From: a virus
IMG/VR virus record: IMGVR_UViG_3300042197_001007
Direction: 5' to 3' (one strand)
DNA length: 64,000 bases
The notes under the pieces are model-generated. The model made no database searches. It worked only from the letters and a program-made list of their open reading frames with translations, and had not been told where the DNA came from. Below, one piece after another: positions 14,330-15,319 of the stretch. Positions within the stretch are counted from its first letter, which is position 1. Every line of letters starts with the position of its first letter. A program made the position numbers and the translations under genes.

Positions 14330-14333
14330 AAGG

Positions 14334-14424
14334 TGAGAGAGGAGGGAATTGAACCCCCGATGGTTCCAATGTAACGGTTTTACAGACCGCAGCCACACGT
14401 ATTGCCAACAGTAGCCACTCTCTC
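14334..14424 (-). tRNA. tRNA-Tyr(GTA) with enlarged D-arm
   Basis: GAGAGAG/CTCTCTC acceptor, CT-GTA-AA loop, long variable arm. Confidence 0.85.
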
Positions 14425-14515: not shown

Positions 14516-14564
14516 TATTCAGTTGTCAAGGTGCTGGTGGTCTCTCGACCACTTGATTAGAATA
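14516..14564 (-). promoter_or_regulatory. tRNA-operon leader: extended -10 followed by boxB-like hairpin and boxA-like element
   Basis: TGG-TATTCT (-10 at 14564-14559), GTGGTC-GAGA-GACCAC (14552-14537), GCACCTTGACAA-CTGAATA (14534-14516). Confidence 0.6.
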
Positions 14565-14684: not shown

Positions 14685-14783
14685 TTACATATGCTTATCC
14701 ATATCCGCAAACAGGGGAGATCCCTCAATATGCCAATAGCGGCAATCGAGAATACTAAACTGTTTGGGCATTGGATAAGACAT
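14685..14783 (-). CDS. 32-aa late-expressed micro-protein MSYPMPKQFSILDCRYWHIEGSPLFADMDKHM
   Basis: Hand translation; perfect TATAAATA late promoter at 14813-14806. Confidence 0.5.
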   Translation of the reverse strand: MSYPMPKQFSILDCRYWHIEGSPLFADMDKHM

Positions 14784-14832
14784 TGTTTTCGACCTTTAAT
14801 GTGTTTATTTATAAGAGTTTTTGAAAACTCAA

Positions 14833-14906
14833 CGCCTCAGGTTGGATTCGAACCAACGGCTAACCGCTTAGAAGGCGGATACTCTAGTCCACTGAGTTAC
14901 TGAGGC
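14833..14906 (-). tRNA. tRNA-Arg(TCT)
   Basis: GCCTCAG/CTGAGGC acceptor, CT-TCT-AA loop. Confidence 0.92.
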
Positions 14907-14920
14907 ATGTAGATAGTATA

Positions 14921-15319
14921 TCAGTGTTTGGGGCAAGTGTCAATCCACGGAGAGCACAACCTGATTTCCCCTCCCAGTGATCGACACTCATCAGTATAGC
15001 ACACAGAGGTGTCCACTGGTTTTTCTGAGTATCTTGGAGATGGCATTTTAACAGTTCCATCGTCTCCTGTCAATCGTTCATAATCTCTGATCGCTTTATC
15101 GACAGTTCTCTTTACTTTGCGTTCTATGATACCAGGATCTTTCTGTAGTTCTGGTATCAAAGGAGAATCTGGTTGATACTTTACTAATGTTTCGTAAATT
15201 ATATCCCAGATATGTTTATCCTCTATCTTGAGGCAAGATGAGAGTGATGCTACAACTAATGTAAGTATTAGTATTGTTTTTATAGATGTTTTCTTTTTAC
15301 CAAAATTAAAATTAAACAT
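14921..15319 (-). CDS. putative lipoprotein (132 aa)
   Basis: Basic N-terminus, hydrophobic stretch, lipobox-like LSSC; Cys-rich C-terminus. Confidence 0.65.
   Translation of the reverse strand: MFNFNFGKKKTSIKTILILTLVVASLSSCLKIEDKHIWDIIYETLVKYQPDSPLIPELQKDPGIIERKVKRTVDKAIRDYERLTGDDGTVKMPSPRYSEKPVDTSVCYTDECRSLGGEIRLCSPWIDTCPKH

Follow-up and report, generated by a model that had tools for sequence, protein, structure and literature searches.

Why would a lytic cyanophage carry the boxA of its host's rRNA (rrn) operons, copied almost letter for letter, ahead of an array of tRNA genes, and why would relatives from another phage family carry it ahead of their early genes? The question arises from a 64-kb stretch of viral DNA (IMG/VR record IMGVR_UViG_3300042197_001007; hereafter, the window), which comes from a T4-like cyanomyovirus whose nearest relative in culture is the Synechococcus phage S-PM2 (~77% identity across the locus). 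The original prediction was that the phage tRNA operon has an rrn-style boxB/boxA leader, through which it borrows the antitermination machinery of the host.

When the window is read, the whole element proves to share the minus strand with the tRNAs. In this orientation, an extended −10 is followed by a hairpin with a GAGA loop, a boxA-like run, and the tRNA-Lys that heads a series of 17 tRNAs. Every part that had been named (the extended −10, the GNRA hairpin, the boxA run, and tRNA-Lys) is thus present, on the minus strand. Upstream, an intrinsic terminator consisting of a G+C stem and T6 (14656-14623, minus strand) was recognized by reading the sequence and is kept in S-PM2 and in other contigs with the leader. 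It closes the upstream unit, which comprises a tRNA-Arg(tct) and a 32-aa ORF, and therefore marks the 5′ boundary of the unit to which the tRNA array belongs. Some 55 nt (approximately) separate this terminator from the predicted extended −10, TGG-TATTCT (14567-14559, minus strand); almost every type-A relative retains TGGTAT between flanks that have diverged. The boxB-like hairpin, GTGGTC-GAGA-GACCAC, was identified by folding; it has a 6-bp stem (14552-14537, minus strand) and ends 2-3 nt before the boxA. The boxA core, GCACCTTGACAACT, preceded by CAG, occupies 14534-14521 (minus strand), the run with its downstream bases, GCACCTTGACAACTGAATA, occupies 14534-14516 (minus strand), and the stretch that matches host copies, flanks included, is 14536-14516. 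From boxA, an A/U-rich linker of 20 nt (14520-14501, minus strand), which is kept among type-A contigs and is shorter or absent in other lineages, leads to the tRNA-Lys and is presumably cut away by RNase P or RNase E. The tRNA-Lys gene itself is at 14500-14428 based on Rfam (the ARAGORN call is shifted by one base). The earlier count of about 15 tRNAs was close, the array proper having 17 (Lys to Val; 14500-13038, minus strand; ARAGORN, Rfam, and promoter scan), mostly 1-3 nt apart. Rfam searches over the leader returned no known RNA family, even with E values of up to 1.

In cyanobacterial 16S-23S spacers, the order of elements is boxB hairpin, boxA, and D4 (Iteman nomenclature). The 13-nt phage core is identical to the boxA of marine picocyanobacterial spacers (13/13), including the C that gives it the appearance of "TTGACA". 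With flanks, the window matches the host spacer copy at 21/24 positions, the host 16S-leader copy at 19/21 (GCACC at the start and the CTGAA continuation are common to both), and the copy in the host rpsJ 5′ UTR at 17/18, contig L289 being identical over the 18-nt stretch. The cyanobacterial boxA consensus of the original prediction is real: the boxA+D4 19-mer matches almost exclusively cyanobacteria among 185,579 species genomes and, in Prochlorococcus, is located between tRNA-Ala and 23S. The box A of the marine picocyanobacterial spacer, as given by a primer, agrees and has the same C as the window (PMC9769826). Of 81 sampled picocyanobacterial genomes (Prochlorococcus/Synechococcus family), 56 have the host core ACCTTGACAACTG, each with one to three copies, and the sampled loci are in the 16S-23S spacer, between tRNA-Ala and 23S. 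In the form ACCTTGAMAACTG, nearly all of these 56 have the C variant of the window.

The spacer is only one of three places in which the hosts carry this motif. A second copy lies in the 16S leader, where a Synechococcus genome has GCACCT-G-GACAACT followed by GAAAAG. Overall, the leader copies read GCACCT(G/A)GACAA(C/T)T, lie 346-561 nt before 16S with one per rrn operon, and come after between one and three small hairpins whose tetraloops are GAGA or GAAA. Six further host copies are outside rrn operons (L329, L336, L339, L341, L342, and L352), 26-100 nt upstream of rpsJ and usually right behind a terminator; the gene downstream from them encodes 106 aa and is assigned to Pfam Ribosomal_S10 (E about 1e-34). 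In other bacteria, boxA in the suhB and rpsJ 5′ UTRs has been interpreted as a site of Nus autoregulation (Baniulyte et al. 2017, PMC5725501), and the boxA ahead of picocyanobacterial rpsJ suggests candidate feedback control (autoregulation) of NusE in a phylum that lacks Rho. The one variable base, in CCT-N-GAC, is G in host leaders (hexamer TGGACA), T in spacers, and mostly C before rpsJ (hexamer TCGACA), and phages have T, C, or A. On this pattern, the motif behaves as a single functional element in the host, and the phage copy falls within its natural variation.

The alignment to host rrn leaders and spacers therefore gave a better match than had been claimed, and some of the detail shifts. 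The core is that of the spacer copy, but the closest copies overall are those of the 16S leader and the rpsJ 5′ UTR rather than that of the spacer. The assignment of a D4 element is weak in the window, given that the bases after boxA vary in the phage family and that a spacer-like GCATA is seen only in podovirus copies. An origin from the spacer alone, with D4, was rejected because the flanks are closer to the 16S-leader and rpsJ copies and the post-boxA bases are variable.

The placement of the motif argues against chance. Across the 64 kb, the degenerate pattern of host type, GMWCCTNGAMAAYT, is matched once, compared with 0.07 matches expected from shuffles, and this sole copy in the window precedes the leading tRNA of the array by 20 nt. 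The 187-kb S-PM2d genome also has one copy, at the homologous tRNA leader, and the podovirus S-CBP1 has one, at an early leader. No further copies of boxA were found elsewhere in the 64-kb window or in the S-PM2 genome.

A survey of cyanophage tRNA leaders, which had been suggested as a check, yielded 42 distinct viral sequences in which a hairpin and boxA are followed by a tRNA within 7-29 nt; in 38 of these, the first tRNA is tRNA-Lys. The set was assembled from three pattern scans of IMG/VR, plus S-PM2 and S-CREM1, and it bears out the expectation of conservation in related phages. When aligned, the 42 leaders hardly vary in the 3′ arm of the hairpin or in AGCACCT.GACAA.T.AA; lineages differ in what lies upstream, in the type of promoter, in the length of the loop, and in the linker. 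The boxA is the most conserved segment, in surroundings that have diverged or been replaced. Among cultured phages, a BLAST search with the 75-nt leader recovered only S-PM2, S-CBP1, and DSL-LC07, and inspection revealed the same module ahead of the tRNA-Lys of S-CREM1. S-SKS1 has no copy of the leader element, and a match in S-H9-2 was set aside as apparently lying within a coding region.

The module is not specific to tRNAs, as it also heads the early genes of cyanopodoviruses. In T7-like members (S-CBP1, DSL-LC07, and several uncultured contigs), the early region is headed by a promoter, a GGTGGG...CCACC hairpin, AG, and boxA. It is some of these early-leader copies that continue with the spacer-like GCATA, and the early operons of these podoviruses are without tRNAs. 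We found no description of boxA or of Nus use by cyanophages in open-access papers and bioRxiv preprints.

Is the hairpin a genuine part of the module? The hairpin at 14552-14537 dominates the predicted structure of the leader (−9.7 kcal/mol for the centroid), and the fold of the 52-nt leader has z = −2.4. Most copies have the same base of the stem, GGTGG/CCACC, so that classical covariation is sparse and rests on a few lineages. These include S-CREM1, in which a T-A pair has become A-T (GGAGG/CCTCC) with pairing kept, S-PM2, in which T-A has become G-C, and the window itself, in which T.G has become C-G. In L376, L405, L393, and L418, unrelated stems that pair are found at the same place (e.g., TGGTTGA-GAGA-TCGACCA). 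Stems of at least 6 bp that end within 4 nt of CACCT were found in 33 of 82 noncoding contexts versus three of 33 chance matches inside open frames, and a hairpin precedes boxA in every copy. Judging from stems that vary between lineages and still pair, the hairpin is real.

A plausible promoter always precedes the hairpin at a distance of 6-9 nt, in three contexts that are unrelated to one another. The S-PM2-like group has TGG-TATTCT (as in the window) or TGG-TATATT (as in S-PM2), often with TTGCCC 17 nt upstream. The S-CREM1-like group has TTGACA-17/18-TATTGT or TTGCAA-17-TATGAT, and the podoviruses have TTGACA-17-TGG-TATGGT. In the window, the conserved extended −10 is 6 nt before the hairpin, and there is no TTGACA-like hexamer at the −35 position upstream of TATTCT. 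With promoters so placed, transcripts would begin at the foot of the hairpin, which puts the predicted start in the window near 14553-14551. Some contigs instead have a promoter after boxA. In L010, L014, and L028, a sigma-70 promoter overlaps boxA, with TATAAATA just upstream of boxA and tRNA-Tyr or tRNA-Asn following, and in the L393 group (L371, L393, L406, and relatives), a good sigma-70 promoter comes directly after hairpin and boxA. In both cases, boxA could be included in RNA only by read-through or from the late-type TATAAATA upstream. A model in which Nus factors load on boxA does not explain these contigs.

For the window phage, we propose the following sequence of events. Host RNA polymerase would start at the −10-type promoter and transcribe the short GAGA hairpin first, and then a single-stranded boxA, the copy of the motif that the host has in its 16S leader, 16S-23S spacer, and rpsJ 5′ UTR. 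Host NusB-S10 would bind this boxA in the nascent RNA and, joined by NusA, NusG, and other proteins of the host, would convert the polymerase to an rrn-type elongation complex. Such a complex may pause less, resist arrest or termination induced by hairpins, and help the nascent RNA to fold, and it could carry on along the 1.5 kb in which tRNA hairpins follow one another without a break, and probably also into the genes that come after them. The presence of a hairpin and a near-exact host boxA at the head of the tRNA operon makes it probable that host Nus factors are recruited for tRNA transcription. Our preferred reading, which we hold to be likely though well short of certain, is that the element forms the 5′ leader of the phage tRNA operon and acts as a host-type NusB/S10 loading site that gives rise to an rrn-type elongation complex. 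A NusB domain was detected in both host genomes searched (G025 and G002), and the hosts have S10 genes; no NusB domain was found in the S-PM2d genome or in the partial nearest record, G001.

What such a complex would do is a separate matter. Cyanobacteria lack Rho (PMC12642595). The promoter/terminator scan and folding revealed no convincing intrinsic terminator inside the tRNA array, and an 85-nt spacer in the array folds no better than shuffles (z = −0.4), so an array-internal terminator was rejected as the object of antitermination. With no Rho in the host and no evident terminator in the array, there would be no classical antitermination target. The leader-trailer helix of rrn architecture is absent as well: no inverted repeat of at least 11 nt links the leader with the last part of the array, and only tRNA stems were seen, which speaks against a full rrn-operon architecture. 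Together, these three absences favor reduced pausing or help with folding over strict antitermination. The term "antitermination", as originally used, may thus be the wrong word for the effect, anti-pausing or RNA chaperoning being likelier. In Escherichia coli, the rrn complex has been described as an RNA-chaperone ring anchored on boxA (PMC8632103).

The phage leader can be placed among known systems by what it shares with each. It has in common with the rrn elements of picocyanobacteria the boxA sequence (13/13 in the spacer core and 19/21 in the leader) and the order of hairpin then boxA, and with their rrn leader hairpins a GAGA-type tetraloop; both are found upstream of structured, untranslated RNA genes. 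However, the hairpin is only 2-3 nt from boxA in the phage compared with 10-30 nt in the hosts, the bases after boxA are unlike D4, and the phage cargo is tRNAs only. The E. coli rrn complex (boxB-boxA-boxC, with NusA/B/E/G, SuhB, and S4) resembles what is proposed here in nucleation by NusB-S10 on boxA, resistance to pausing and termination, and RNA folding (PMC8632103). It differs in that the phage's host lacks Rho and boxC is undefined in the phage leader, and only about 7-8 of the 11 positions of the E. coli-type consensus, GYTCTTTAANA (PMC5725501), are common to the phage boxA. The boxA sites in the suhB and rpsJ 5′ UTRs (PMC5725501) repress the ORF downstream, whereas the phage site precedes untranslated tRNAs, although the host rpsJ 5′ UTR has the phage's motif.

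The use of boxA by a phage has a textbook precedent, that of lambda, where it depends on a phage protein and has been studied as an anti-Rho device. As at nutL and nutR, the phage puts a host-type boxA and a hairpin early in the transcript, where they would modify host RNA polymerase. In lambda, however, boxA comes before boxB and N binds the boxB loop, whereas the window phage has the rrn-like order and a near-exact host rrn motif. A lambda-type nut site is ruled out by this order, with the hairpin before boxA in all copies, and we know of no N-like factor or phage cofactor for the cyanophage element. The phage boxA site here is, on the face of its sequence, of the rrn type and not of the lambda type, and the tRNA operon that it heads is transcribed in a host that has no Rho.

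Other explanations of the same features must be weighed. The one that survives best, and that we nonetheless consider unlikely, is that boxA does bind NusB-S10 but with no pay-off in processivity, serving as a decoy for the Nus factors of rrn operons or as a repressive or feedback site like those in the suhB and rpsJ leaders. The copy in the phage resembles that in the host rpsJ 5′ UTR (17/18, with L289 identical over 18 nt) no less than that in the rrn leader, which leaves a decoy or feedback function some small probability; in addition, boxA can repress (PMC5725501), and no terminator in need of suppression is visible in the array. However, a decoy would profit from many copies or from very high expression, and translation repression is inapplicable to tRNAs. 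A loading site would be expected just where the element is found, once in each phage genome and in front of early operons or long operons of structured RNA.

Slightly less probable again is that the hairpin, with the A/U-rich leader, stabilizes the RNA or directs its processing (protection by a 5′ stem, or entry of RNase E or RNase P), with boxA a non-Nus remnant of a host rrn fragment captured along with tRNA genes. The hairpin would indeed occupy the extreme 5′ end of the predicted transcript, and phage tRNA genes are commonly held to be derived from hosts. Yet homology to the host is confined to about 21-24 nt with unrelated flanks, a remnant would not remain invariant as the most conserved segment of the 42 leaders, and podoviruses have this module in front of early operons from which tRNAs are absent.

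Finally, it is very improbable that the run is a DNA-level element whose TTGACA is the −35 of the array's sigma-70 promoter and whose likeness to boxA is a by-product: although the window phage uses many consensus TTGACA-17-TATAAT promoters on the same strand, and in L010, L014, and L028 the same 16-mer is followed 17 nt on by TGG-TATTAT or TGG-TAACAT (a good promoter), the hexamer 17 nt downstream in the window is TTATTT (2/6 relative to the −10 consensus), a start from this −35 would land inside tRNA-Lys, in S-PM2 and L095 no more than 12 nt separate TTGAAA from the tRNA, relatives with TCGACA or TAGACA have lost the bases that matter most in a −35, the distance to the tRNA ranges over 7-29 nt among relatives, and conservation reaches beyond the hexamer to GCACC and AAYT, tracking the host boxA. 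As both the hexamer and its spacing to the tRNA vary in relatives, TTGACA cannot be a −35 alone, which was the case raised against the original prediction. The sigma-70 −35 reading was rejected given that no fitting −10 lies 16-18 nt downstream in the window and TTG is not conserved.

Returning to Nus loading, its reach may be wider than this one operon. It seems to us evenly balanced whether cyanophages of marine and estuarine waters, T4-like (Kyanoviridae) as well as T7-like (Autographiviridae), generally make use of a portable hairpin-boxA cassette, copied from the rrn leader of the host, by which host RNA polymerase would be turned into an rrn-type Nus complex on chosen operons. If Nus factors do load, this would explain how phages synthesize long runs of structured RNA quickly and completely. 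It would also add a dependency on the host that could shape host range, and it would provide a compact, mutable substrate for studying the cyanobacterial Nus system. To our knowledge, there is no biochemical demonstration of boxA function in cyanobacteria. Because the host phylum is without Rho, the phage leaders and the rpsJ 5′ UTR copy would be a clean system in which to study the role of boxA and Nus in the absence of Rho.

Several minor observations were made in the leaders and around the array. A small hairpin, GGGG-AACGAGA-CCCC (in L001, 3409-3428), recurs ~100 nt upstream of boxA in many type-A contigs, and the same sequence forms the loop of the boxB-like hairpin of S-PM2, as if it were a movable insert. 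In some S-CREM1-like tRNA leaders (L278, L297, L302, L359, and L418), the −35 of the promoter is in the loop of a G6/C6 hairpin, an arrangement that we take to resemble the "promoter-early stem-loop" cassettes of T4-type phages.

Within the array, the promoter scan placed an internal consensus promoter at 13238-13210 (minus strand), ahead of the last two tRNAs. At 14332-14424 (minus strand), ARAGORN called a 93-nt tRNA-Arg(gcg), an unusually long tRNA-like gene for which Rfam gave only a weak tRNA-Sec-like match (30.8 bits, below threshold). Beyond the terminator, the tRNA-Arg(tct) (14832-14943 in the window, minus strand) has directly upstream its own consensus promoter, TTGACA-17-TG-TATACT (14943-14915), placed so that the transcript would carry almost no 5′ leader. 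The 32-codon ORF, also on the minus strand, runs from an ATG at 14783 to a stop that ends at 14685, with a T4-late-like TATAAATA upstream at 14813-14806 and the terminator at 14656-14623 downstream. Based on alignment, both this ORF and its Cys-Arg-Tyr-Trp-His core are kept in S-PM2.
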